Shown here: piece after piece, positions 2,758 to 40,809 of the stretch
Layout: every line of letters begins with the position of its first letter
Position numbering within the stretch: position 1 is the first letter of the stretch
Source: an uncultured Candidatus Saccharibacteria bacterium
Lineage (GTDB): Bacteria > Patescibacteriota > Minisyncoccia > Phycocordibacterales > UBA9973
Direction of reading: 5' to 3'
Assembly (NCBI GenBank): GCA_964356875.1
Contig: CAYHIX010000001.1
Coordinates: 1-41,223 of the forward strand
DNA length: 41,223 bases
Position numbers and translations under genes: made by a program
Notes under the pieces: model-generated
The model's database searches: none
The model's input: the letters and a program-made list of their open reading frames with translations, nothing else
Told to the model about the DNA's origin: nothing

Positions 2758-3315
2758 ATGATGAGCCAAGAAAAAAAATCTTTTCTGTTCGATCCAAAAT
2801 TCCTTATAGGACTTTTTTTGTCTCTCCTCATCCGCTTAATTCCGTTTCGTGCACCGAACGTAGAGCCGATACTCGCTACGGCGATGCCCTTCGGTAAATA
2901 TTTTGGACCACTCGCTTCTTTTTCTTTCGCAGTTCTAAGTATTTTGATATACGATCTTGCTACAAACACACTCGCGGTGCATACATTTTTTACAGCTAGC
3001 TCTTACGGACTCATAGGTTTCTGGGCTGGGCATTATTTTAAACAAAAAGAAGGCAGACCTTTGGAATACGTCCGTTTTGCGATCTATTCCACACTTGTTT
3101 TTGATGCTTTGACTGGGTTAACCACTGGCCCACTATTTTATAATCAATCATTTTTAAGTGCGCTTTCGGGGCAAATACCTTTTACTATTCTGCATCTCCT
3201 GGGAAATATAACTCTGGCATTCATTTTATCTCCCGCCATATATAAGATGCTCTATAAGAAAAAGAAAAAAGAAAATCTATCATCCATTAAAATTCTTAAC
3301 CCTAAAACAATTTAA
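2758..3315 (+). CDS. Small 6-TM membrane protein resembling an ECF-type S component (substrate unknown; corrinoid suggested by context only)
   Basis: 185 aa, very hydrophobic. The N-terminal motif RLIPFRAPNVEPILA resembles, from memory, the RLxPHxPNFxP signature of an S-component-like family (DUF6580 / folate-family S component). The stop is 5 nt before nrdJ. Confidence 0.6.
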   Translation: MMSQEKKSFLFDPKFLIGLFLSLLIRLIPFRAPNVEPILATAMPFGKYFGPLASFSFAVLSILIYDLATNTLAVHTFFTASSYGLIGFWAGHYFKQKEGRPLEYVRFAIYSTLVFDALTGLTTGPLFYNQSFLSALSGQIPFTILHLLGNITLAFILSPAIYKMLYKKKKKENLSSIKILNPKTI

Positions 3316-3320
3316 ATCAT

Positions 3321-5636
3321 ATGAAAACCAAATCAAAATCCAACACAAATACATTAAAATTATCAAAGAGCGAACTTGCAAAAATAAAAACTATCCGTAA
3401 GCGAGGGGGAGAAGTTGCCCCATTTGATTTAGGGATTATTGTGGGTGCCGTAGAGAAAGCATTTGAGGTGACAAAAGAAGGTGGTGAGCAAGAGTCGTAT
3501 AAAGTAGCAAATAGCGTTTTTAAAAATCTTTTAGACCTCAAAACTAAACTCACTACTGAACACAAAGGTTCAACATTTCTGCCAACAGTTGAGATCGTGC
3601 AAGATTTCGTAGAGCAAGAACTTATGAAGTTGAATTTTACTGAGACTGCTAAAAAATATATTTTATATCGAAACAAGCGTTCCGAGCTGCGAGCCCAGTT
3701 TGGTCCAGTTCCAGAAGCAGTGCGCCAAGCAGTAGAGGAGTCTAGTAAATATTTCTCTAGTCCATATTCTGAGTACATCTTCTACCAGTTTTATTCTAGG
3801 TGGATCCCAGAGCTTGGTCGCCGCGAGACATGGATAGAGACGATTAATCGCTACATGGACTACATGAAAGAAAATCTTGGCAATAAACTTACAGCTAAAG
3901 AATATGAAGACGTCCGCACGGCCATCATTAATCAAGACATTTGTCCTTCTATGAGGCTTCTCTGGTCTGCTGGTAAAGCATGCCGTCAATCAAACGTATG
4001 GGCTTATAACTGTTCATATATTGCTCCTACATGCACACAGGACCTTGGGGAGATCATGTATGTGTCTATGTGCGGGGCAGGATTGGGGTTTGCTGTAGAG
4101 TGGGAGAATGTTCAGAAATTTCCACAGATTAAAAAGCAAATCACAGGTAAAGCGCCTACTCATGTAGTAGTAGATAGTAAAGAAGGTTGGGCTGATGCGT
4201 TTGTCAAAGGACTCGACGCTTGGTTTGATGGTAAAGACATGAAGTTTGATTATAGTCTGATCCGTCCAGCAGGTGCGAGACTACAGACAGCAGGAGGAAA
4301 AGCTTCTGGTCCACAACCACTTATGGATTTGATGGATTTCGCAAAAAGAAAAATCCTTGCTAAGCAAGGTCGCCGACTTTCCAATCTCGACATGCATGAC
4401 CTCATCTGTCAGATAGGTCTTATCGTCGTCGCAGGTGGTGTACGCCGCAGTGCTCTTATCTCTCTTTCAGAACTCGAAGACACAGAGATGCGTGATGCAA
4501 AGAAAGGACAATTTTATCTTACAGAAGGGCAGAGAGCTATGGCAAATAATTCTGCAGTGTACAATGCAAAGCCAAGCGCTGAAGAATTCCTAGATGAATG
4601 GACTGCACTTGTAAAATCAAAATCAGGAGAGCGAGGAATATTTAATAGAGCAGGCCTCGAGAAACAACTTCCAGCACGAAGATGGGATGCGATAAAAGAC
4701 GAAAGACAAATAGGGCTCAACCCATGTGGAGAAATTTATTTAAGATCAAAGCAATTCTGTAATTTGACTAGTATCGTTATCCGTCCAACCGACACAGCTC
4801 AAACACTAAAGAGAAAGATAGAGCTTGCGACACTTCTCGGCACATATCAGTCAACACTCACAAACTTCGGCTACCTTTCAAAGAAATGGAAAGAGAATTG
4901 TGATGCAGAGAGATTACTCGGTGTCTCACTTACAGGATATTATGATAACCCAATAGTACGAGAAGATAAAATCCTCGATATGATGAAAGCGCACGCAGTA
5001 GAAGTAAACAAAAAATACGCAAAGAAGTTTGGCATCAATCAATCTACAGCTATCACTTGCGTAAAGCCTCATGGGAACTCAGGGCAGCTCCTCGGTGTCG
5101 GATCTGGTATGCACCCTTGGTATGCTCCTTACTTTGTTCGTCGAGTTCGTATCTCACATACTGATACACTTCTACAGATGGCTCGCGATCAAGGAGTACC
5201 ATGTGTACCAGAGGTTGGGCAAGCTGAAGACACAGCTACAACATTTGTATTAGAGTTCCCAGTAAAAGCACCAAAAGGTGCAATATTCAAAGACGAAGTA
5301 TCTGCACTCGAACTTATGAAAGAATGGAAGAGACTCAAGGAGCATTTCGTGGAACACAATCCATCTGCAACTATTTATGTAGGACCAGATGAATGGATCG
5401 CAGTAGGAAACTTCGTATATGAGAACTGGGATTTCGTCGGTGGTATGTCCTTCCTCCCACGTTCTGAACACGTATACCAGCTCGCTCCATATGAAGAGAT
5501 AACAAAAGAAGAATATGAAAAGCGCTCAAAAGCTATCGGCAAGATCGACTTCTCTAAACTTTCTCAATACGAAAATGTAGACAATACCATAGGTGCAAAA
5601 GAGTTTGCATGTGTGTCAGGAGTTTGTGAAATCTAA
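3321..5636 (+). CDS. nrdJ: Adenosylcobalamin-dependent (class II) ribonucleotide reductase
   Basis: 771 aa with an N-terminal ATP-cone-like segment (KRGGEVAPFD...KKYILYRNKR), the active-site strand NPCGEI and a C-terminal Cys pair CVSGVC. Overall resemblance to monomeric/dimeric class II RNRs. Confidence 0.88.
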   Translation: MKTKSKSNTNTLKLSKSELAKIKTIRKRGGEVAPFDLGIIVGAVEKAFEVTKEGGEQESYKVANSVFKNLLDLKTKLTTEHKGSTFLPTVEIVQDFVEQELMKLNFTETAKKYILYRNKRSELRAQFGPVPEAVRQAVEESSKYFSSPYSEYIFYQFYSRWIPELGRRETWIETINRYMDYMKENLGNKLTAKEYEDVRTAIINQDICPSMRLLWSAGKACRQSNVWAYNCSYIAPTCTQDLGEIMYVSMCGAGLGFAVEWENVQKFPQIKKQITGKAPTHVVVDSKEGWADAFVKGLDAWFDGKDMKFDYSLIRPAGARLQTAGGKASGPQPLMDLMDFAKRKILAKQGRRLSNLDMHDLICQIGLIVVAGGVRRSALISLSELEDTEMRDAKKGQFYLTEGQRAMANNSAVYNAKPSAEEFLDEWTALVKSKSGERGIFNRAGLEKQLPARRWDAIKDERQIGLNPCGEIYLRSKQFCNLTSIVIRPTDTAQTLKRKIELATLLGTYQSTLTNFGYLSKKWKENCDAERLLGVSLTGYYDNPIVREDKILDMMKAHAVEVNKKYAKKFGINQSTAITCVKPHGNSGQLLGVGSGMHPWYAPYFVRRVRISHTDTLLQMARDQGVPCVPEVGQAEDTATTFVLEFPVKAPKGAIFKDEVSALELMKEWKRLKEHFVEHNPSATIYVGPDEWIAVGNFVYENWDFVGGMSFLPRSEHVYQLAPYEEITKEEYEKRSKAIGKIDFSKLSQYENVDNTIGAKEFACVSGVCEI

Positions 5637-5784: not shown

Positions 5785-6351
5785 ATGTTATACACAAGAA
5801 AAGGAGATGATGGTACTACAAAAACATTTGGTTGCGACCAAAGGGTATCTAAGAGCTCGCTTGTCGCCGAAGCTCTCGGCACATTAGATGAAGTTAATTC
5901 TTTTTTGGGTTTTGTTCGCGCCAAGGCGGCTGCCACAGGTTTTGAATGTGATGATCCTGTTAATCCTCGGATGCAGTATGCGGATGTGGTGCTAGAGGTT
6001 CAACAAAACCTTTTTATCGTACAAGCACAGGTGGCTGGGGCAGATAAAAAGATAACTGAAGATAAAATAAAAAGAATAGAAAGTATAACCGACAGCATCG
6101 AAAGAGTTTTACCTAAAATAAGTAGTTTTTTCATATCTGGGGCGACAGAGCTCGGAGGGGCTTTTGACTTTGCTCGCACCCTAGCACGCCGAGCCGAGAG
6201 GCGAGTAGTGGCGGTGAAAGAAGAAGGAAAAACAGAAATAGAACCAAATACACTACAATACTTAAATAGACTTTCAAGTTTGCTTTACGCACTAGCACGC
6301 ATTTCTAGCCGTGTCGGTGGACATGAAGAAATAATTCCAGATTATAAATAA
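5785..6351 (+). CDS. ATP:cob(I)alamin adenosyltransferase, PduO/MMAB type
   Basis: 188 aa. N-terminal YTRKGDDGTT matches the YTxxGDxGxT signature, followed by LGTLDEVNSFLG and a helical-bundle C-terminal part. Confidence 0.88.
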   Translation: MLYTRKGDDGTTKTFGCDQRVSKSSLVAEALGTLDEVNSFLGFVRAKAAATGFECDDPVNPRMQYADVVLEVQQNLFIVQAQVAGADKKITEDKIKRIESITDSIERVLPKISSFFISGATELGGAFDFARTLARRAERRVVAVKEEGKTEIEPNTLQYLNRLSSLLYALARISSRVGGHEEIIPDYK

Positions 6352-6354
6352 ATT

Positions 6355-6741
6355 ATGGATATAAAATTTAATGAAATAAAAAGCCAAGAACAATTTTTAG
6401 AAATATTCAAAGGTCTATGTGACATTGCTGAAATAGCATTCAATAAGTTTGAGGAAAATTGTTCTGACCCCAAACCAGAAGAGAAGCGACTGGTTTCTAG
6501 AAATATTAAATACTTAATAAGTATTACTTTAGTTATCATGGGAATGAGGGGCGATTATATAGTGTTCCGGGATCATAAAGTTTTGAGTGGGTTTTCTGTG
6601 GAGGTAGATGGTATCGTATACGACCAGTCCTATCTATATAAAATGAATGATTATTTTGAAACGAGGCTGACTAGGGCACTGGAAATTCTGCAAAAAGTAG
6701 ACCCAGAAAAATATAAGGAGTTTACAAATTTTTTGTCATAA
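6355..6741 (+). CDS. Hypothetical protein
   Basis: 128-aa ORF starting 3 nt after the adenosyltransferase gene. No recognisable motif. Confidence 0.55.
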   Translation: MDIKFNEIKSQEQFLEIFKGLCDIAEIAFNKFEENCSDPKPEEKRLVSRNIKYLISITLVIMGMRGDYIVFRDHKVLSGFSVEVDGIVYDQSYLYKMNDYFETRLTRALEILQKVDPEKYKEFTNFLS

Positions 6742-6836: not shown

Positions 6837-7298
6837 ATGTATTTCTGGAAGATAGAAAATCTAAAAAAAGATTTAATAAAGGGATCACTTTCTGAAAATG
6901 AATCCTTTATGTATTTAATGGCAACATTAATTATATATGGTTTTAGCACTATTCCTTTACTCGACAGTACTATGTGGGATGTGTACGCAGGCTTAGTAGG
7001 ATTTGTCTTGCAAATTATTGGTGCCTATTATGTTTATAAGTGCAATAAGGGATCTAGCGGTAATAATTTTTTACAGAAATATTTATCTATAGGTTGGGTT
7101 TTAGGTATTAGATGGTTGATAATGGTGTTGATACCTTTTGTTGCTGTGTATATTGTTTGTGGTTGGTTAGCTGCAGTCATGTATGATGTTGATATTCTTC
7201 AATATGATTTTCTTAATTTATTTATTTTAAGTTTATTTTCTATATCTTATTATTGGTTGTTTGGTAAACACATGAAAGATGTTGCTAAGCAGGCTTAA
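6837..7298 (+). CDS. Hypothetical integral membrane protein
   Basis: 153-aa ORF with about 4 hydrophobic segments. Confidence 0.6.
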   Translation: MYFWKIENLKKDLIKGSLSENESFMYLMATLIIYGFSTIPLLDSTMWDVYAGLVGFVLQIIGAYYVYKCNKGSSGNNFLQKYLSIGWVLGIRWLIMVLIPFVAVYIVCGWLAAVMYDVDILQYDFLNLFILSLFSISYYWLFGKHMKDVAKQA

Positions 7299-11025: not shown

Positions 11026-11694
11026 ATGAAGATATTAGTAGTTGAAGACAATATAAAACTGGCAGAAAATATACGGCAAGGACTGGTGCAAGAAGGCTAT
11101 GCAGTAGACGTCATAGAAGACGGGCTTGTAGCTGAAAGGCGTATACTAGTGAATAAAGACGAGTATGATCTCATCATTTTAGACAGAATGTTGCCCGGTA
11201 AAGACGGTGTGTCTGTATGCACCTACTGGAGAGAGTCCGGAGTGGTGATACCTATATTGATGCTTACCGCACTTGATTCTACTGAAGACAAGGTCTTAGG
11301 GCTCGACGCTGGGGCTGATGACTACCTAGCCAAACCTTTTGCTTTCAAAGAGCTAGTATCTCGAATACGAGCTCTACTTCGAAGGCCGACGCAAACATCT
11401 CCAGACTTACTTACTCTAAAAGACCTTACTATAAATACTAGGAATAGAGTGGTAAGCTATAAAAACAAGGTGGTGTCACTCACTTTGAAAGAATTCATGG
11501 TGCTGGAATACATGATGCGCCACCTTGGGAAAGTAGTGACTAGAGATGAGCTATATGCACATGCTTGGGATTTTGCAGATTCTTCTTTTAGTAACACTGT
11601 CGATGTACATATCAAAAATTTAAGAAAAAAAATTCATGATAATGCAAAAATTATACAAACAATTCGAGGCGTGGGTTACAAAATGGAAAATTAA
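11026..11694 (+). CDS. OmpR/PhoB-family response regulator
   Basis: 222 aa. Receiver domain (VVEDN, LIILDRMLPGKDG, LTA, KPF) plus a winged-helix output domain (LTLKEF, RGVGYKM). Confidence 0.93.
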   Translation: MKILVVEDNIKLAENIRQGLVQEGYAVDVIEDGLVAERRILVNKDEYDLIILDRMLPGKDGVSVCTYWRESGVVIPILMLTALDSTEDKVLGLDAGADDYLAKPFAFKELVSRIRALLRRPTQTSPDLLTLKDLTINTRNRVVSYKNKVVSLTLKEFMVLEYMMRHLGKVVTRDELYAHAWDFADSSFSNTVDVHIKNLRKKIHDNAKIIQTIRGVGYKMEN

Positions 11695-12670
11695 TAACAC
11701 TTTTGACGAGTTCTTTGTCGCCCGTATTCGTCTTACTTTTTATTATTCTATTACTGCTCTCATCATCCTTGGTGTGTCCAGCATCATACTTTATAATACG
11801 ATTTTATCAAACTTATCAGAGTCCATACTTGAGGATAATAGATTTAATCCTCAAATAGCTAGGTTTATCATAGATCGTACTCAAGACATATTGGTAAGCC
11901 GTTTTCTGACGATAAACTTTATTTTAATAATTTGTATAATTGTTTTAGGATTTTTTCTAAGTCAGAAGACTTTGAAGCCCATAAAGTCCAATATGGAAAA
12001 ACAAAAGAGATTTATAGCGGACGCTTCGCATGAACTAAGGACACCTATTGCTGTCATCATCTCCGGACTGGAAGTGAATCTAAATAACAAGAAGCTAGAC
12101 GACGTGCTTGCCCGCAAAGTCTTAGAAGATACTCTGGTAGAGGTCCGAGATCTATCTGTGCTCACGAATAACTTGTTAGATATTTCCAAATACGATACTC
12201 AAAAACAAATAGAATACGAAATATTGAATATAAGTGATTTGGTAAAAGAAATAGTGGGCAAGATGGTAAATCTGGCTAATGATAAAAATATAATAATTGA
12301 AACTAATATAAATTCTCTAGAAAAAGTAAGAGGGAACAAGATCGCACTTGGTAGGGTAGTCTCTAATATTTTAGATAATGCTATAAAGTATTCAGAAACA
12401 GGTGGATTAGTGCAAATTTCTGAAAAAATTTCATTAAATAGATATATACTTAAAGTCAACGACAATGGAAAAGGTATCTCGAAAAATATTTTAAACAAGA
12501 TCTTTGATCCATTTTTCAGGGGAGATATCTCTCGTAATAAAAGCGGGGCTGGGCTAGGACTAGCTCTATCAAAGAAAATAATAGAAGACCACAGGGGTAC
12601 AATATCTATAAAAAGTGAGTTAAATAAGGGCACAACGGTCATAATCTCTCTACCCCTATTTTCTTCATAA
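11636..12670 (+). CDS. Sensor histidine kinase
   Basis: 344 aa with two TM segments, H-box SHELRTP, N-box DNAIKY and G-boxes DNGKGI / GAGLGLAL. Overlaps the regulator gene by 59 nt. No in-frame start lies downstream of the overlap before the first TM. Confidence 0.9.
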   Translation: MIMQKLYKQFEAWVTKWKINNTFDEFFVARIRLTFYYSITALIILGVSSIILYNTILSNLSESILEDNRFNPQIARFIIDRTQDILVSRFLTINFILIICIIVLGFFLSQKTLKPIKSNMEKQKRFIADASHELRTPIAVIISGLEVNLNNKKLDDVLARKVLEDTLVEVRDLSVLTNNLLDISKYDTQKQIEYEILNISDLVKEIVGKMVNLANDKNIIIETNINSLEKVRGNKIALGRVVSNILDNAIKYSETGGLVQISEKISLNRYILKVNDNGKGISKNILNKIFDPFFRGDISRNKSGAGLGLALSKKIIEDHRGTISIKSELNKGTTVIISLPLFSS

Positions 12671-22438: not shown

Positions 22439-22930
22439 ATGTACAAGAAAGATAAGGGTGGTTTTTCGTTGATAGAGCTTTTAGTAGTCGTGGCTATTAT
22501 TGGAGTTTTGAGCACAATAGTTTTATCCGCAGTTATTAGTGCTCGTGAAAAAGCTCGAGACGTAAAAAGAAAAGCAGAGATATCAGGTATAGGTAGGCTC
22601 ATCACTGCATCTTGTTATGTGCCGAGCGCCGGAGTGGGTGAGTACGACGTAGCTCTGCTAGTAGCTGAATTTGTGGCAGCTTATCCACAATATGCAAATT
22701 ATGCATCTCAAGTACCGAAAGACCCAAGTGCTTCTGGTGCAGATTCTATGTATTTGTATATTGTAGACTCAAATGGTAAATGCGCCGTATATGCAAATCT
22801 TGAAAATGAAAACGAAAAAGTAACCCTAGCAAATATTTCAACAGCTACTCCAGGTGGAGGCACGGGCGTTTTTACAGGCACGACTGAAGGAGTCAATGGC
22901 TCTAATAAATATTTCCAAGTTTCAAATTAA
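22439..22930 (+). CDS. Type IV pilin / pseudopilin with an N-terminal prepilin methylation motif
   Basis: 163 aa. KGGFSLIELLVVVAIIGVLSTIVL is a class III signal peptide (G|FSLIE) followed by the hydrophobic helix. Confidence 0.85.
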   Translation: MYKKDKGGFSLIELLVVVAIIGVLSTIVLSAVISAREKARDVKRKAEISGIGRLITASCYVPSAGVGEYDVALLVAEFVAAYPQYANYASQVPKDPSASGADSMYLYIVDSNGKCAVYANLENENEKVTLANISTATPGGGTGVFTGTTEGVNGSNKYFQVSN

Positions 22931-25550: not shown

Positions 25551-26084
25551 ATGAAAATAGATATTGCTTGTACATTTGAAAAAATTTACGCAGAAGAATC
25601 GGATACTATATTTCGATTCTGCGCTATTCGTGTGTCTAATAAAGAGCAGGCATTAGACATAACCCAGGAAACGTTCTTACGACTTTGGCAGACGTTATCG
25701 ACTGGAGAAAAGGTGAAAAATCCAAGGGCATTCCTCTTTCTAGTCGCTCGTCGCCTTATCATAGATTGGTATAGAAAGAAAAAGAGTGTTTCTTTGGAAA
25801 ATATAATGTACAAAGATGGAGAGGTAGCTTATGATCCTGTTGATGAAAAAACAATGGATATTCTAAACATAAAAGCAGAGGGGAGGTTTTTGCTAGAAAG
25901 GATTAATGACCTGTCAGATATTTTTCGTGATCCAGTGCACTTGTCTTTCATAGAAGGCTTGTCGCCAAAAGAAATTGGTGATATTTTAGGCCTGTCAGCA
26001 AATACTGTATCAGTCAGGGTTCATAGAGGGATAGAAGAACTACGAAAAAATACAGGTTATGAGAAAAATAAAAAAACTAAATAA
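25551..26084 (+). CDS. ECF-type sigma-70 family RNA polymerase sigma factor
   Basis: 177 aa with region 2 (ALDITQETFLRLW, LIIDWYRKK) and region 4 HTH (LSPKEIGDILGLSANTVSVRVHRG). Confidence 0.85.
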   Translation: MKIDIACTFEKIYAEESDTIFRFCAIRVSNKEQALDITQETFLRLWQTLSTGEKVKNPRAFLFLVARRLIIDWYRKKKSVSLENIMYKDGEVAYDPVDEKTMDILNIKAEGRFLLERINDLSDIFRDPVHLSFIEGLSPKEIGDILGLSANTVSVRVHRGIEELRKNTGYEKNKKTK

Positions 26085-37766: not shown

Positions 37767-39563
37767 TTAAAAAAGAAAACCTAAAATTTTTGAAAACCAA
37801 CTTTTCTCCACGGGCTTTTCTTCCGTTATGCTTACAGGTTCTACTAGGGGAAGAGCGGGTTTATCATCAATAGCTTTTATAGGAGTCGCAGTTAATATCT
37901 TATTAACTGCGATTTTCTTTTTGGGAATTTCTTTAACAACTTTATTTACCACAGGTGTTGTTGGCTTTTCAAATTTCTGTAAAGTTTCGCCCCATGTTTT
38001 TCCTGAATATGACTTGATAGTATATGTGGTTTGCCAGATCTTATTTTTAAGGTTTTCTTCTTTTATACCTCCATCTGTATCTTGCTTAGATGCTAAGTAA
38101 TCAAGTGGAGTAAGTTCTCCTTTCTTCCAATCTTCAGGCTTTTCATTTAGTCCTATAATACCTTCAATAGCCCATGCAGTAGATGAAACATTACCGAAAC
38201 CACCGTCTTCTTTTTGGCTCTTTTTCAAGAATTCTTTTCCTTTTTCTATAGCTTTCTTAGTATTTTCTCCACTATCTAAAGTCGATAAGATTTGGATAGT
38301 GGCCCCAGTCATATCAATACTCTCATCCCAAGACCCGTTTTCTTTTTGTCTACTTAACACAAAGTTCATACTTTCTTTTACCATGTTATCTTCTAGACTA
38401 AATCCGGCATTTTTTAATACCAAGAGCGCAAAGATGTCATCATTATCTTCTTTTATATCTCCAAACTGTTTACCGTCAAAAGCAGAAGTTATCTTCTCTA
38501 TATAGTTTAGTCCATTTGTATTGTATGGATTAAGCCCAACTGCCATGAGAGCCATAGCATGCCTTTCATAGTCTGTCAGTAGATCACCTGCTGGCTTGTG
38601 TTCATTTAAATATTTTATTAATTTTATTGTTGCTTGGGTATGATTACCAGAAGCTAGAGTGATGGCTGCCCAGTCTGTGTACATGTCTTCACCAAATGAC
38701 CCATCATCTTTTTGTTGTGAGATTAGAAATTCAAATGCTTTTGCAACATCAAACTTTAATTTTGTTGTAGCGCCCAAAACCTCTCCAGCCTTATTTGCAC
38801 TAGAGTTGCTGCTGCTACTTCCACCACCGCTAGATACAGGCGCAGGAGTAGTTATTGTTAAAGGTTCAGTAGGGAAATAATAATCTTCCTTTACTCCTAC
38901 ATTATAAGAACCAGCTGTAATAGAGGGGAACATCGCTTGTCCATTTGCATCCACTGCGCTTGTGGTTACTTCAGTTGGGCTAAATGGATCACTTGGGTTA
39001 GGCTGAGTCAGCCCCACAGTAACGCCTGTCCTAGTGGTCCAGGAATTGTTCTCGTAGTCGTAGTTTTGAGTAGTGACAGTCAGGGTGTCATTTGTGCTGA
39101 TGTCTGAAGAACTTAGGAGTATCTTGGTCTGTGATCCGAAGTATATATATACATTTTCTCCACCACTTAAAATACTCTGATCAATACTAGAGAAAGGATA
39201 TGATCCGTTTACTACATACTGCCAGTTGTCGCAATCTTCACCAAAAGTGCTTTCTAAACATTTTAAATAAAAAGCCCCAAAAGAATCATAATATTGGAGA
39301 GATGAAATACTCCAAGTATCATCGAGAGAGTCTGCCTGGGTTAGAAGTGACAGCACGCTTTGATTATTTACTGAATGCGGGGTACCAGTATTGTCTTCTA
39401 TGTCTACAGCGCCCGAGGCTCCAAGCGGGACTTCTCCTGAAAAGATAATATTTGAACCACTTCTGACAGTGAGTGCTACTGTAGGATCTTCGGCATAAGA
39501 AACTTTAGTAAATCCAGTTAGTAATATTGCGAGCACTACTAAAACTTTTATTGTATTTTTCAT
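37767..39563 (-). CDS. Secreted multidomain protein: DUF4430-like beta domain, Ig-like domain, Ser/Gly linker and a prenyltransferase/terpene-cyclase-like alpha/alpha toroid (transcobalamin-like parts list)
   Basis: 598 aa with signal peptide MKNTIKVLVVLAILLTGFTKVSYA. NWQYVVNGSYPFSSIDQSILSGGENVYIYFG is DUF4430-like. Four Q-x-x-DG-[SG]-[FW]-type repeats are present (SQQKDDGSFG, SRQKENGSWD, KSQKEDGGFG, SKQDTDGGI). Second gene of the riboswitch-led operon. Confidence 0.85.
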   Translation of the reverse strand: MKNTIKVLVVLAILLTGFTKVSYAEDPTVALTVRSGSNIIFSGEVPLGASGAVDIEDNTGTPHSVNNQSVLSLLTQADSLDDTWSISSLQYYDSFGAFYLKCLESTFGEDCDNWQYVVNGSYPFSSIDQSILSGGENVYIYFGSQTKILLSSSDISTNDTLTVTTQNYDYENNSWTTRTGVTVGLTQPNPSDPFSPTEVTTSAVDANGQAMFPSITAGSYNVGVKEDYYFPTEPLTITTPAPVSSGGGSSSSNSSANKAGEVLGATTKLKFDVAKAFEFLISQQKDDGSFGEDMYTDWAAITLASGNHTQATIKLIKYLNEHKPAGDLLTDYERHAMALMAVGLNPYNTNGLNYIEKITSAFDGKQFGDIKEDNDDIFALLVLKNAGFSLEDNMVKESMNFVLSRQKENGSWDESIDMTGATIQILSTLDSGENTKKAIEKGKEFLKKSQKEDGGFGNVSSTAWAIEGIIGLNEKPEDWKKGELTPLDYLASKQDTDGGIKEENLKNKIWQTTYTIKSYSGKTWGETLQKFEKPTTPVVNKVVKEIPKKKIAVNKILTATPIKAIDDKPALPLVEPVSITEEKPVEKSWFSKILGFLF

Positions 39564-39570
39564 AATATTT

Positions 39571-40047
39571 TTAATTTATTTCGTCTTCGTATTTCCAAGA
39601 GACGACATCACCTTCTTTTATTTTATAATTTGAAACCCCGATCTCTGCTTTTTTACCGTTTACATAATAAATCCAATACTTATTACCATCACTCCTCACT
39701 CCATTTATTTCCTCTATGAACTGACCTATGCCTATAAAATTCTTTTCTTTGAACTTAATTTGTCCTCGCTTTCGAAGAGTACTCATAAAATTGTAAACAT
39801 TTTCACCTTCCTTAATTTCTCCTTTTAGTGTTACTCCATTTATCTCTAGTCTTGCCTCATTTGCTTCGTCTGTATAAATTTTCTTTACTACTTCTGTTTC
39901 TGTGTTTATCTCGTTTACTTCTGTTGGGGGAGAAATACTATAGCCTTTCCCTGCATTATCCTTTTTAGTAAAAAACAAACCACTAAATACTAATAATATA
40001 ATTAAGGCAGAAGCTAGGATTATGGTGTTTTTATCTTTTTTTAACAT
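39571..40047 (-). CDS. Membrane-anchored DUF4430-like (transcobalamin beta-domain-like) protein
   Basis: 158 aa with an N-terminal TM. C-terminal KYWIYYVNGKKAEIGVSNYKIKEGDVVSWKY matches the DUF4430 pattern W-x-Y-x-VNG...G...Y...GD.I.W.Y. First gene after the riboswitch. Confidence 0.8.
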   Translation of the reverse strand: MLKKDKNTIILASALIILLVFSGLFFTKKDNAGKGYSISPPTEVNEINTETEVVKKIYTDEANEARLEINGVTLKGEIKEGENVYNFMSTLRKRGQIKFKEKNFIGIGQFIEEINGVRSDGNKYWIYYVNGKKAEIGVSNYKIKEGDVVSWKYEDEIN

Positions 40048-40058
40048 TTTTAATAATC

Positions 40059-40155
40059 CCTGCCTTTTGAATTCATGAATTCAAAAGGCAGGATACAGAA
40101 AATTATAATCACTACGTTCATTAATTTCAATAAAAAATTCTGCCTTTTAGCAGAA
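40059..40155 (-). promoter_or_regulatory. Riboswitch expression platform: perfect 34-nt palindromic hairpin next to the start codon plus an upstream competing hairpin and U-run
   Basis: 40059..40092 is CCTGCCTTTTGAATTC-AT-GAATTCAAAAGGCAGG, and its 3' arm (minus-strand sense) ends 11 nt before AUG 40047. A second AAAAGGCAG copy lies at 40141..40149 inside UUCUGC-UAAAAG-GCAGAA followed by U6. Confidence 0.6.
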
Positions 40156-40210
40156 TGAGTAGACCTTGGAATGGATTTCGAAGGGCTTATCCTGCTCGGG
40201 ACTAATAAAA

Positions 40211-40305
40211 TAATTGGTAGTCGGACTTGTCTCTCGTCTTATAAAATATAGACCAGAGCTTACCGTAGCGGCACTGTACTGGAATCAAACCAGTTTCCCC
40301 AATTA
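40211..40305 (-). ncRNA. Cobalamin riboswitch aptamer (short, class-II / AdoCbl-variant-like architecture)
   Basis: Minus-strand RNA: P1 UAAUUGG...CCAAUUA, then GGGGAAAC, hairpin CUGG-UUUGAUU-CCAG, GUGCCGCUACGGUAAGC, a short hairpin, and a B12-box-like AAGUCCGACUACC. The order and sequence match the conserved cobalamin riboswitch core. No long P6 extension or GCCACUG element. Confidence 0.8.
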
Positions 40306-40356
40306 CTTCTTTGAATTTTCTAATGAACTCCGTATAGTATATACTTACTATAATCT

Positions 40357-40809
40357 ATGTCAAAAAACGCTGTGGAAAAGAAAATAAAACCAGTAAAGAT
40401 CATGATTTTTGGGACTTTTGATGGTATACACAAAGGTCATATGAATTTCTTTAAGCAAGCGCGAGATCTCTCCAAAACCCCATATCTGATAGTCTCAATC
40501 GCGAGAGATAAGAACGTTAAAAAAATAAAAGGTAAATCCCCAATAAAAAATGAGAAAGAAAGGGAAGAGCTAGTAAGAAAAATCAAAATAGTAGATAAAG
40601 TTATTTTATCTGGTCTTACAAATCACATTCCACACATAGTAAAAGAAACTCCAGACATCATCGCTCTTGGTTACGACCAAGTAGAATACATAAAAAATCT
40701 TAAAAAAGATCTGAAAGAGAAAAAGCTTAGCCCAAAAATAATACGACTAAAGCCTTATAAAGAACATATATATAAAAATACTTTATTAAAAAAACTAGCC
40801 ACAAAATAG
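40357..40809 (+). CDS. HxGH-type nucleotidyltransferase (cytidylyltransferase-like; possibly an FMN adenylyltransferase-type enzyme)
   Basis: 150 aa. IMIFGTFDGIHKGHMNFF is the (H/T)xGH motif of the nucleotidyltransferase alpha/beta phosphodiesterase superfamily. Substrate not assignable. Confidence 0.72.
   Translation: MSKNAVEKKIKPVKIMIFGTFDGIHKGHMNFFKQARDLSKTPYLIVSIARDKNVKKIKGKSPIKNEKEREELVRKIKIVDKVILSGLTNHIPHIVKETPDIIALGYDQVEYIKNLKKDLKEKKLSPKIIRLKPYKEHIYKNTLLKKLATK

Follow-up and report, generated by a model that had tools for sequence, protein, structure and literature searches.

What could a bacterium gain by placing two exported proteins behind a cobalamin (vitamin B12) riboswitch? The question is raised by contig CAYHIX010000001.1 of assembly GCA_964356875.1, from an uncultured Candidatus Saccharibacteria bacterium, of which we analyzed positions 1 to 41,223 (the window, 41,223 nt long). 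On its minus strand, a cobalamin riboswitch, an intrinsic terminator, a gene for a 158-amino acid (aa) protein (gene A) and a gene for a 598-aa protein (gene B) follow one another. A first-pass annotation, made from the letters alone, had seen in the two genes (below, the pair) a surface system for the capture of corrinoids. The observation is confirmed and its interpretation is supported within the limits of computation: the pair probably forms an operon, repressed by B12, for the capture of corrinoids outside the cell, with predicted ligand binding, in a Patescibacteria bacterium of the Nomurabacteria/Paceibacteria type that needs B12 for its class II ribonucleotide reductase. There is good computational support for capture followed by transfer to a CbrT-like transporter.

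Relatives were collected by a scan of one genome per species, which returned 156; the counts of loci given below rest on the best 80 of these 156. All 80 loci come from Patescibacteria, with the labels Nomurabacteria, Paceibacteria and similar. In the window, gene A runs from 40047 to 39571 and gene B, after 7 nt, from 39563 to 37767 on the same strand (open reading frame listing), exactly as first annotated, and in 75 of the 80 loci the small gene likewise lies directly 5′ of the large one. The family of gene B comprises 876 clusters at 50% identity (E ≤1e-30).

Folds of the two exported proteins

The 158-aa protein had been described as a transmembrane anchor followed by a DUF4430-like beta domain, with the fold that transcobalamin and intrinsic factor have in their C-terminal domain; every part of this description was recovered. 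The Pfam model DUF4430 (PF14478) matches gene A with E 1.4e-15 (57.9 bits against a cut-off of 23.8), and the peptide quoted in the annotation, KYWIYYVNGKKAEIGVSNYKIKEGDVVSWKY, corresponds to residues 123-153. The N-terminus is strongly hydrophobic (residues 8-26, mean Kyte-Doolittle value 2.66); as the protein contains no Cys, and thus no lipobox, this segment should be a signal anchor and the protein not a lipoprotein. In the AlphaFold model, a helix (residues 6-26) and a disordered segment (31-60) precede a beta-grasp domain with an extra hairpin after its helix: strands 64-69 and 72-77, helix 84-93, hairpin strands 99-104 and 108-114, and strands 123-129 and 148-155. Foldseek returned 19 significant matches in PDB, all of them to transcobalamin, intrinsic factor, haptocorrin or the bacterial DUF4430 structure 3u7z. 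On 5np4, the isolated beta domain of human transcobalamin crystallised with cyanocobalamin, the model superimposes with a root-mean-square deviation of 1.5 Å over 98 residues (TM score 0.81). Searches against PDB sequences with either protein as a single query gave nothing useful, and the family profile of gene A gave a spurious repeat match alone.

In an alignment of 52 members of the gene A family, the invariant or nearly invariant positions include K96, F99, K102, G106, G108, I111 and I114-G116 in the hairpin, as well as the strand W125-IYYVN130. The post-helix hairpin and the equivalent strand contact B12 in transcobalamin, according to Burroughs, Balaji, Iyer and Aravind (2007, Biol Direct 2:4, PMC1796856), who defined the SLBB superfamily; its transcobalamin-like clade corresponds to DUF4430.

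The AlphaFold model of gene B (predicted local distance difference test, pLDDT, 84.5) consists of a helix at residues 2-19, a beta domain at 28-142, a beta sandwich at 146-238, a disordered segment at 244-261, 12 helices within 273-519, a second disordered segment at 537-584 and a last helix at 589-597. The signal peptide, the Ig-like spacer, the Ser/Gly linker and the alpha/alpha toroid that had been proposed for this protein all have their counterparts here (2-19, 146-238, 244-261 and 273-519). Both the model and the family profiles give the order SLBB-like domain, Ig, linker, toroid, which is indeed permuted relative to transcobalamin. The proposal of a second DUF4430-like domain, at the N-terminus of gene B, is supported through the family: domain 1 of the window protein itself stays under the Pfam cut-off for DUF4430, whereas 34 of 60 family members scanned singly meet or approach the cut-off of PF14478 (best E 6.8e-8).

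Domain 1 carries two invariant Cys (C102 and C111) and an NWQYVVNG strand. Its profile matches the small protein of locus L062; against PDB it gave just a weak match, to the first strands of the small lipoprotein 2rd1. When domain 1 is aligned with the gene A family by hhalign, the alignment is weak, yet equivalent strands are paired and the result is topologically sensible. In domain 2, a few family members match CarboxypepD_reg or SpaA.

The toroid is recognized in the window protein by SQHop_cyclase_C (PF13243; E 8.5e-10, 38.6 bits against a cut-off of 26.1), with weak matches to TED_complement, Prenyltrans and Cobalamin_bind (E 0.015). Among the same 60 family members, SQHop_cyclase_C was found in 60, TED in 52 and Cobalamin_bind (PF01122) in 31 at E ≤0.01 (best 3e-8). 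Thus, the profile and structure searches that the first-pass annotation had proposed recovered both DUF4430 and alpha-toroid similarity. Its four repeats of the form Q-x-x-D-G-[SG]-[FW] stood in part: two are strict (Q284 and Q450), while the others are loose (QKENGSW at 406 and QDTDGGI at 494). Neither sequence nor fold rank can assign the toroid to the transcobalamin family. The family of gene B thus has an N-terminal domain that is DUF4430-like but divergent, followed by a toroid bearing a specific but faint likeness to the transcobalamin alpha domain.

One could ask whether gene B is instead a surface enzyme resembling terpene cyclases or prenyltransferases, or a thioester trap of the A2M/TED kind, with an incidental link to the riboswitch. 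In favour of this, squalene-hopene cyclase, drimenyl diphosphate synthase, MstE and TED-containing chains of complement/A2M proteins come out as the best matches by sequence and by Foldseek, and QW-like repeats are present. However, the toroid is one 12-helix barrel and not the two-barrel architecture of the cyclases; the protein is exported, fused to an SLBB-like domain and paired with another SLBB protein; it has no CGEQ thioester, its sole two Cys being C102 and C111 of domain 1; and a linkage to riboswitch and nrdJ that extends over dozens of loci (see below) cannot be incidental. We regard such an enzyme or trap as extremely improbable.

The tripeptide N374-D375-D376 is invariant in 60 homologues and marks the N-terminal end of one of the toroid helices (EDNDD, residues 372-376, window 38436..38450). 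It recalls DxDD, the acid motif of class II terpene cyclases; in a weak alignment, the D374VDDTA of squalene-hopene cyclase falls 4-5 residues away. The NDD could be a ligand contact or a vestigial catalytic site.

Two identities were tried for the toroid and rejected. A class II cyclase would fit the profile and the QW repeats, but not the single barrel, the export or the position of the NDD (4-5 residues off D374-D377 of squalene-hopene cyclase); also, NCBIfam cyclase models reach 22-46 bits against cut-offs of 322-851. A thioester (TED) domain was dismissed because the toroid has no C[GA]EQ motif.

The tail of gene B, which follows the disordered Pro/Lys-rich stalk (stalk and tail together: residues 536-598, window 37770..37958), is conserved in homologues as W-F-x-[KR]-[LF]-[LI]-x-x-I-F and is too short for a transmembrane helix. 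Judged by its sequence, this amphipathic segment may serve as an anchor, in the plane of the membrane or in the wall, that is characteristic of this Patescibacteria family.

In five of the 80 loci, no small gene directly precedes the large one. Three of them begin at a contig end just upstream of the large gene; in the other two, L035 (5740-5986) and L067 (1316-1531), the riboswitch stands directly before the toroid gene, with no small SLBB gene. As riboswitch and toroid gene occur there without gene A, gene B is presumably able to work alone, which suggests that the large protein is self-sufficient for the predicted binding. In some other relatives the large protein is extended, either by two tandem SLBB-like + Ig modules before the toroid or by N-terminal extensions of 100-400 residues (L061:5986-7548, L070:6040-7335; representatives P0241-P0375, 800-1100 aa). 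The duplicated SLBB-Ig modules suggest a tuning of avidity or reach.

Control region and genomic linkage

The cobalamin riboswitch reported in the annotation is found by Rfam on the same strand as the pair and above the gathering score (40349..40206). Its 3′ end is 159 nt upstream of the ATG of gene A; the terminator and its T-run lie between. When Rfam was run on 10 related loci, 6 reached the gathering score (34-54 bits), with the subtypes RF00174, RF01482 and RF01689. From riboswitches found by Rfam we built a custom covariance model and searched with it upstream of the pair in the 80 loci. In 66 loci, that is, in 66 of the 75 that have upstream DNA, the model located a riboswitch directly upstream and on the correct strand; this is how the co-occurrence survey proposed in the annotation turned out, with a cobalamin-clan riboswitch of three subtypes before the pair.

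Of the 14 loci missed by the custom model, 5 have no upstream DNA. In the 9 that have it (L047, L050, L051, L059, L066, L071, L073, L074 and L079) no cobalamin riboswitch was detected, by Rfam either. Two of these nine, L079 and L047, were checked for pduO; in both the small gene adjoins it (with a gap of ~13 nt in L079), and the pair seems to be co-transcribed with nrdJ-pduO.

One helix of the aptamer shows compensatory double changes in 3 pairs (in 6-36 of 67 sequences). In this helix 93.5% of cells are paired, as compared with 85% in shuffled and 25-54% in slid controls, on an alignment that was fitted to the covariance model and is therefore biased in the model's favour.

The Rfam subtype differs by genome: the adenosylcobalamin type II riboswitch (AdoCbl-II, RF01689) was seen at L044:5162-5259, the AdoCbl type (RF01482) at L055:5100-5231 and RF00174 in the window's clade. 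This variety hints at differing selectivity for forms of cobalamin among lineages.

A hairpin with a T-run follows 3′ of the aptamer in 66 of the 66 riboswitch loci, and we infer that the terminator at 40156..40131 is the expression platform of an OFF switch. Downstream of the aptamer, a CCGAGCAG motif is present in 57 of the 66 loci. The pairing of the candidate anti-terminator with ATTCTGCT extends over 8 bp in the window and over at least 6 bp in 34 of 52 loci; for GAGCAGGAT it is convincing solely in the clade nearest to the window (these 34 of 52). Together, GAGCAGGAT and the terminator make up a standard anti-terminator arrangement, which points to an OFF switch.

The -10 region of the promoter-like element upstream falls within a block, TAAGTATATACTA, that is conserved among close relatives (alignment of L001, L005, L010 and L014). 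Pairing is poor in the outermost Rfam helix, which shares positions with the -10 box; thus, the 5′ end of the aptamer, and with it the transcript start, is probably near 40330. On the other side of the terminator, a 34-nt palindrome ends 11 nt before the start codon of gene A and covers the sole purine run resembling a Shine-Dalgarno sequence; possibly it masks translation. Along with the near-consensus promoter that precedes it, the palindrome could give riboswitch-independent basal transcription with translational masking.

The annotation had further named nrdJ, an adenosyltransferase gene and an S-component-like protein as signs of B12 use and uptake; all three are present at the other end of the window (3321..5636, 5785..6351 and 2758..3315). 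To follow the linkage, all neighbours of the pair were clustered across the 80 loci and compared with the window proteins. Upstream of the pair, contiguous and on the same strand, nrdJ is found in 36 of 80 loci, the S-component of an energy-coupling factor (ECF) transporter in 33 and pduO in 20, in each of the 20 immediately upstream. The gene orders among relatives are S-nrdJ-pduO-riboswitch-A-B or nrdJ-S-riboswitch-A-B. In the window and its closest relatives, the FtsH ... S-nrdJ-pduO ... RecG frame is kept, with the pair ~31 kb away beside a cytidylyltransferase-like gene, DoxX and a transglutaminase-like gene.

The family profile of the S-component has a sole match in PDB, chain A of ECF-CbrT (6fnp_A, 182 aa; E 0.003). 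This match and the adjacency in 33 of 80 loci make the S-component at 2758, one of the hand-off candidates of the annotation, the right candidate partner. On NCBIfam, it has just weak and differently named S-component matches, and so the substrate assignment rests mainly on context.

In 36 of the 80 relatives (L020, L031 and others), the unit of riboswitch and pair sits between pduO or the S-component gene and RecG, in an FtsH-tRNA-S-nrdJ-pduO frame; in the lineage of the window, this old position now holds two unannotated open reading frames (6355..6741 and 6837..7298).

Riboswitch and synteny by themselves say merely that the pair is related to B12. Its role could then be something other than uptake, such as sequestration of cobalamin from competitors or a host, storage at the surface, or surface processing, with removal of the upper or lower ligand via the toroid NDD. 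That the NDD is invariant, stands at a helix start and recalls the DxDD of class II cyclases is consistent with processing, and BtuM is an example of a B12 uptake protein that also does chemistry (PMC6072759). Repression by B12, however, best fits acquisition, and the presence of a CbrT-like S-component right next to the pair in 33 loci argues for hand-off. The transcobalamin fold family is not known to be catalytic, which also counts against a role of this kind. We consider it unlikely.

Table 1. Positions of the pair, its control elements and the B12-related neighbours in the window
Feature	Position	Strand	Basis
Gene A, 158 aa	39571..40047	-	Anchor residues 8-26, disordered linker of ~35 residues, SLBB/DUF4430 62-156
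Gene B: signal peptide, residues 1-24 (...KVSYA/ED)	39492..39563	-	Sequence, hydropathy; model helix 2-19
Gene B: domain 1, residues 26-144, divergent SLBB/DUF4430-like	39132..39488	-	34/60 family members match PF14478
Gene B: domain 2, residues 145-240, Ig-like/prealbumin-like beta sandwich	38844..39131	-	Model strands 146-238
Gene B: Ser/Gly-rich disordered linker, residues 241-261	38781..38843	-	pLDDT <50 over 244-261; sequence
Gene B: alpha/alpha toroid, residues 262-535, 12 helices, QW-like repeats	37959..38780	-	PF13243, Foldseek, invariant columns
Gene B: Pro/Lys-rich stalk 536-584, amphipathic tail (SWFSKILGFLF) and stop	37767..37958	-	pLDDT <50 over 537-584; helix 589-597
Cobalamin riboswitch aptamer (RF00174, clan CL00101)	40206..40349	-	Rfam 32.8 bits against gathering score 31.5; E 9e-5 for whole window
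Promoter-like TTGACA-16-TATACT	40336..40363	-	Consensus scan, 11/12 matches; predicted function
Conserved CCCGAGCAGGAT segment, candidate anti-terminator strand	40189..40200	-	Pairs with terminator 5′ arm; predicted role
Intrinsic terminator ATTCTGCT-AAAA-GGCAGAAT then TTTTTT	40131..40156	-	Terminator scan
Sigma70-like near-consensus promoter TTGAAA-17-TATAAT	40102..40130	-	Between riboswitch terminator and palindrome
Perfect 34-nt palindromic hairpin CCTGCCTTTTGAATTC-AT/GA-GAATTCAAAAGGCAGG, two EcoRI sites	40059..40092	-	Sequence and fold
ECF-type S-component (CbrT-like)	2758..3315	+	PF12822 E 6e-6, 26.8 bits against cut-off 30.7
Class II B12-dependent ribonucleotide reductase NrdJ	3321..5636	+	Pfam ATP-cone, RNR-II insertion domain, RNR barrel
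PduO-type cobalamin adenosyltransferase	5785..6351	+	PF01923 E 4.7e-44

In 12 loci, the toroid gene is followed, ~23 nt further 3′ and on its own strand, by a gene for an ArsR-family helix-turn-helix protein (e.g. L020:7894-8247). Fusions of SLBB to ArsR were noted as possible B12-sensing regulators by Burroughs et al. (PMC1796856), and a tie between these fusions and the downstream gene is conceivable.

The other genes of the window are ordinary for a Patescibacteria genome. They include genes for a type IV pilin-like protein with an N-methylation motif, an extracytoplasmic-function (ECF-type) sigma factor, a two-component system, FtsEX, CTP synthase, an RF-2-like release factor, RecG and FtsH, as well as six tRNAs (coordinates cited for this content: 22439..22930, 25551..26084 and 11026..12670).

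Comparison with known systems

The closest precedent is the class of proteins described in 2007 (PMC1796856), in which bacterial secreted transcobalamin-like SLBB domains were predicted to scavenge B12 and were proposed as the source of animal transcobalamin. The pair shares with this class the secreted SLBB domain with its clade-specific beta-hairpin insert, the fusions to Ig folds, the toroid (which in bacteria may be N- or C-terminal to SLBB) and the operon with a second, paralogous SLBB protein. The class was described in organisms without B12 synthesis, and the predicted B12 scavenging is shared as well. The settings differ: the members described in 2007 belong to Firmicutes and archaea and have CbiO/CbiQ-like neighbours, while here we deal with Patescibacteria, with no genes nearby that would energise an ECF transporter, and with linkage to a solitary S-component, nrdJ and pduO under a cobalamin riboswitch; riboswitches are mentioned 0 times in PMC1796856. 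The pair is thus not new in kind, as the 2007 prediction already covers the permuted order, the Ig fusions and the paralogous second gene. What is new is a riboswitch-linked member, in a new phylum and in a new regulatory and genomic setting. A literature search of incomplete coverage found no paper tying SLBB/toroid proteins to riboswitches or to Patescibacteria, an absence that is not proof.

With the mammalian carriers transcobalamin, intrinsic factor and haptocorrin (PF01122 + PF14478), the pair has in common an alpha6/alpha6 toroid, a beta-grasp domain with a hairpin insert and an extracellular location. The carriers also lead to a dedicated uptake route, a likeness that we draw for the pair. 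They are single chains, with an N-terminal toroid and then a C-terminal beta domain; in the pair the beta domain comes first, an Ig domain is added, a second beta domain exists as a separate anchored protein, and the whole is predicted to be attached to the cell and not circulating. The toroid does not reach the cut-off of PF01122 (see below). The pair is a member of the DUF4430/SLBB family and not of the family of eukaryotic cobalamin binders; that it works like transcobalamin we infer.

For the membrane step, the nearest counterpart is ECF-CbrT of Lactobacillus delbrueckii, an experimentally proven B12 transporter whose gene stands in an nrdJ-cbrS-cbrT-pduO cluster (Santos et al. 2018, eLife, PMC5997447). 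The neighbourhood of S-component, nrdJ and pduO is the same, and the S-component profile matches CbrT. The differences are that this similarity is weak (E 0.003) and that no ECF module was seen among the window proteins scanned.

In Bacteroides, the lipoproteins BtuG and BtuH bind B12 at the surface; their folds are not known to be related to those of the pair, and their acceptor is the outer-membrane protein BtuB. The likeness to the pair is functional only, with riboswitch-linked, high-affinity capture at the surface feeding a membrane transporter (Wexler et al. 2018, eLife, PMC6143338).

Another system brings in a different ligand. In Latilactobacillus sakei, the adjacent genes Lsa1839 and Lsa1840 encode an exported protein resembling the beta domain and an exported toroid protein; according to the proposal made for them, the two assemble into a heterodimer, which would bind a tetrapyrrole and deliver it to an ECF S-component (bioRxiv 10.1101/864751). 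These genes lie inside a complete ECF operon, lsa1836-1840, that was assigned to heme, while in our case regulation and neighbours point to cobalamin; also, the toroid protein here has SLBB-like and Ig domains of its own, and the small protein is membrane-anchored.

Should the pair then be read as a system for capture of heme, or of some other tetrapyrrole? Verplaetse et al. modelled heme at the interface of the beta and alpha proteins and made a strain with the neighbouring ECF operon deleted, so as to examine what part this operon has in heme uptake (bioRxiv 10.1101/864751). For the loci studied here, this is highly unlikely: a cobalamin riboswitch controls 66 of them, the neighbours are nrdJ and pduO and not heme genes, and the S-component resembles CbrT; in the eLife study of ECF-CbrT (PMC5997447), hemin is confined to a reagent table.

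A working model and its bearing on Patescibacteria

Several results weigh against corrinoid capture and are collected here. In the window, the riboswitch is just 1.3 bits over the threshold. The geometry between the domains of gene B is uncertain (predicted template-modelling score, pTM, 0.53), and the similarity of domain 1 to the SLBB family of gene A by hhalign is weak (E 0.006, probability 6%). The toroid of the window protein scores 14.7 bits with PF01122, under the cut-off of 25; its profile finds squalene-hopene cyclase in PDB with E 3.6e-16 and transcobalamin with E 1.7. Foldseek, too, ranks TED domains and terpene cyclases (E ~1e-7) above the transcobalamins 2v3n and 2bb6 (~1e-5), with the whole 598-aa model as query and a result dominated by multi-domain complement/A2M chains. 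Of 30 members of the S-component family, 23 weakly match a riboflavin-named NCBIfam model, and among the 30 window proteins scanned there was no EcfA, EcfA' or EcfT; FtsEX and an ABC exporter were found instead. The sole experimental study of a related pair, that of L. sakei, argued for heme (bioRxiv 10.1101/864751), and our literature search, within its incomplete coverage, found no corrinoid binding reported for any bacterial SLBB/toroid protein.

Corrinoid capture remains the reading that we favour, and the following mechanism is proposed for it. At low intracellular cobalamin, the unliganded riboswitch would leave GAGCAGGAT free to base-pair with the terminator's 5′ arm, and transcription would read through into the pair, as the terminator and anti-terminator imply; with cobalamin bound, the terminator at 40156..40131 would form. 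Both gene products carry signals for export. Gene B, as a permuted transcobalamin (beta-grasp SLBB domain, Ig spacer, flexible linker and toroid), would be held in the envelope by its Pro/Lys stalk and amphipathic tail and would clamp a corrinoid between the toroid face and the SLBB domain, in the fashion of transcobalamin. Gene A would supply a second SLBB domain on a membrane-anchored tether of ~35 residues; it may complete the clamp in trans or shuttle the corrinoid to the CbrT-like ECF S-component (window 2758..3315), the likely acceptor in the membrane. Inside the cell, PduO would make AdoCbl and NrdJ would consume the cofactor.

One could speculate further, with low confidence, on a two-tier relay. 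A permuted transcobalamin at wall level would take corrinoids off the surface of a host or neighbour and give them to the tethered beta domain, which would dock onto the solitary CbrT-like S-component; the relay would be the sole entry route for B12 into these ultra-small bacteria, possibly with chemistry at the NDD, and would have no described counterpart.

Patescibacteria (also known as the candidate phyla radiation, CPR) have minimal genomes and are not known to make B12. Their DNA precursors depend on a ribonucleotide reductase that needs B12; with no known synthesis of the cofactor and a reductase that requires it, its acquisition is central to their dependence on other organisms. For the part of this acquisition that takes place outside the cell, the pair is a concrete candidate, and one that can be expressed. 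It provides the strongest comparative evidence so far for the 2007 prediction of bacterial B12 binders of the transcobalamin type, the proposed source of the animal carriers. It also bears on the question of corrinoid versus heme for such pairs as that of L. sakei, and it offers a directly testable handle on B12 acquisition in the CPR.

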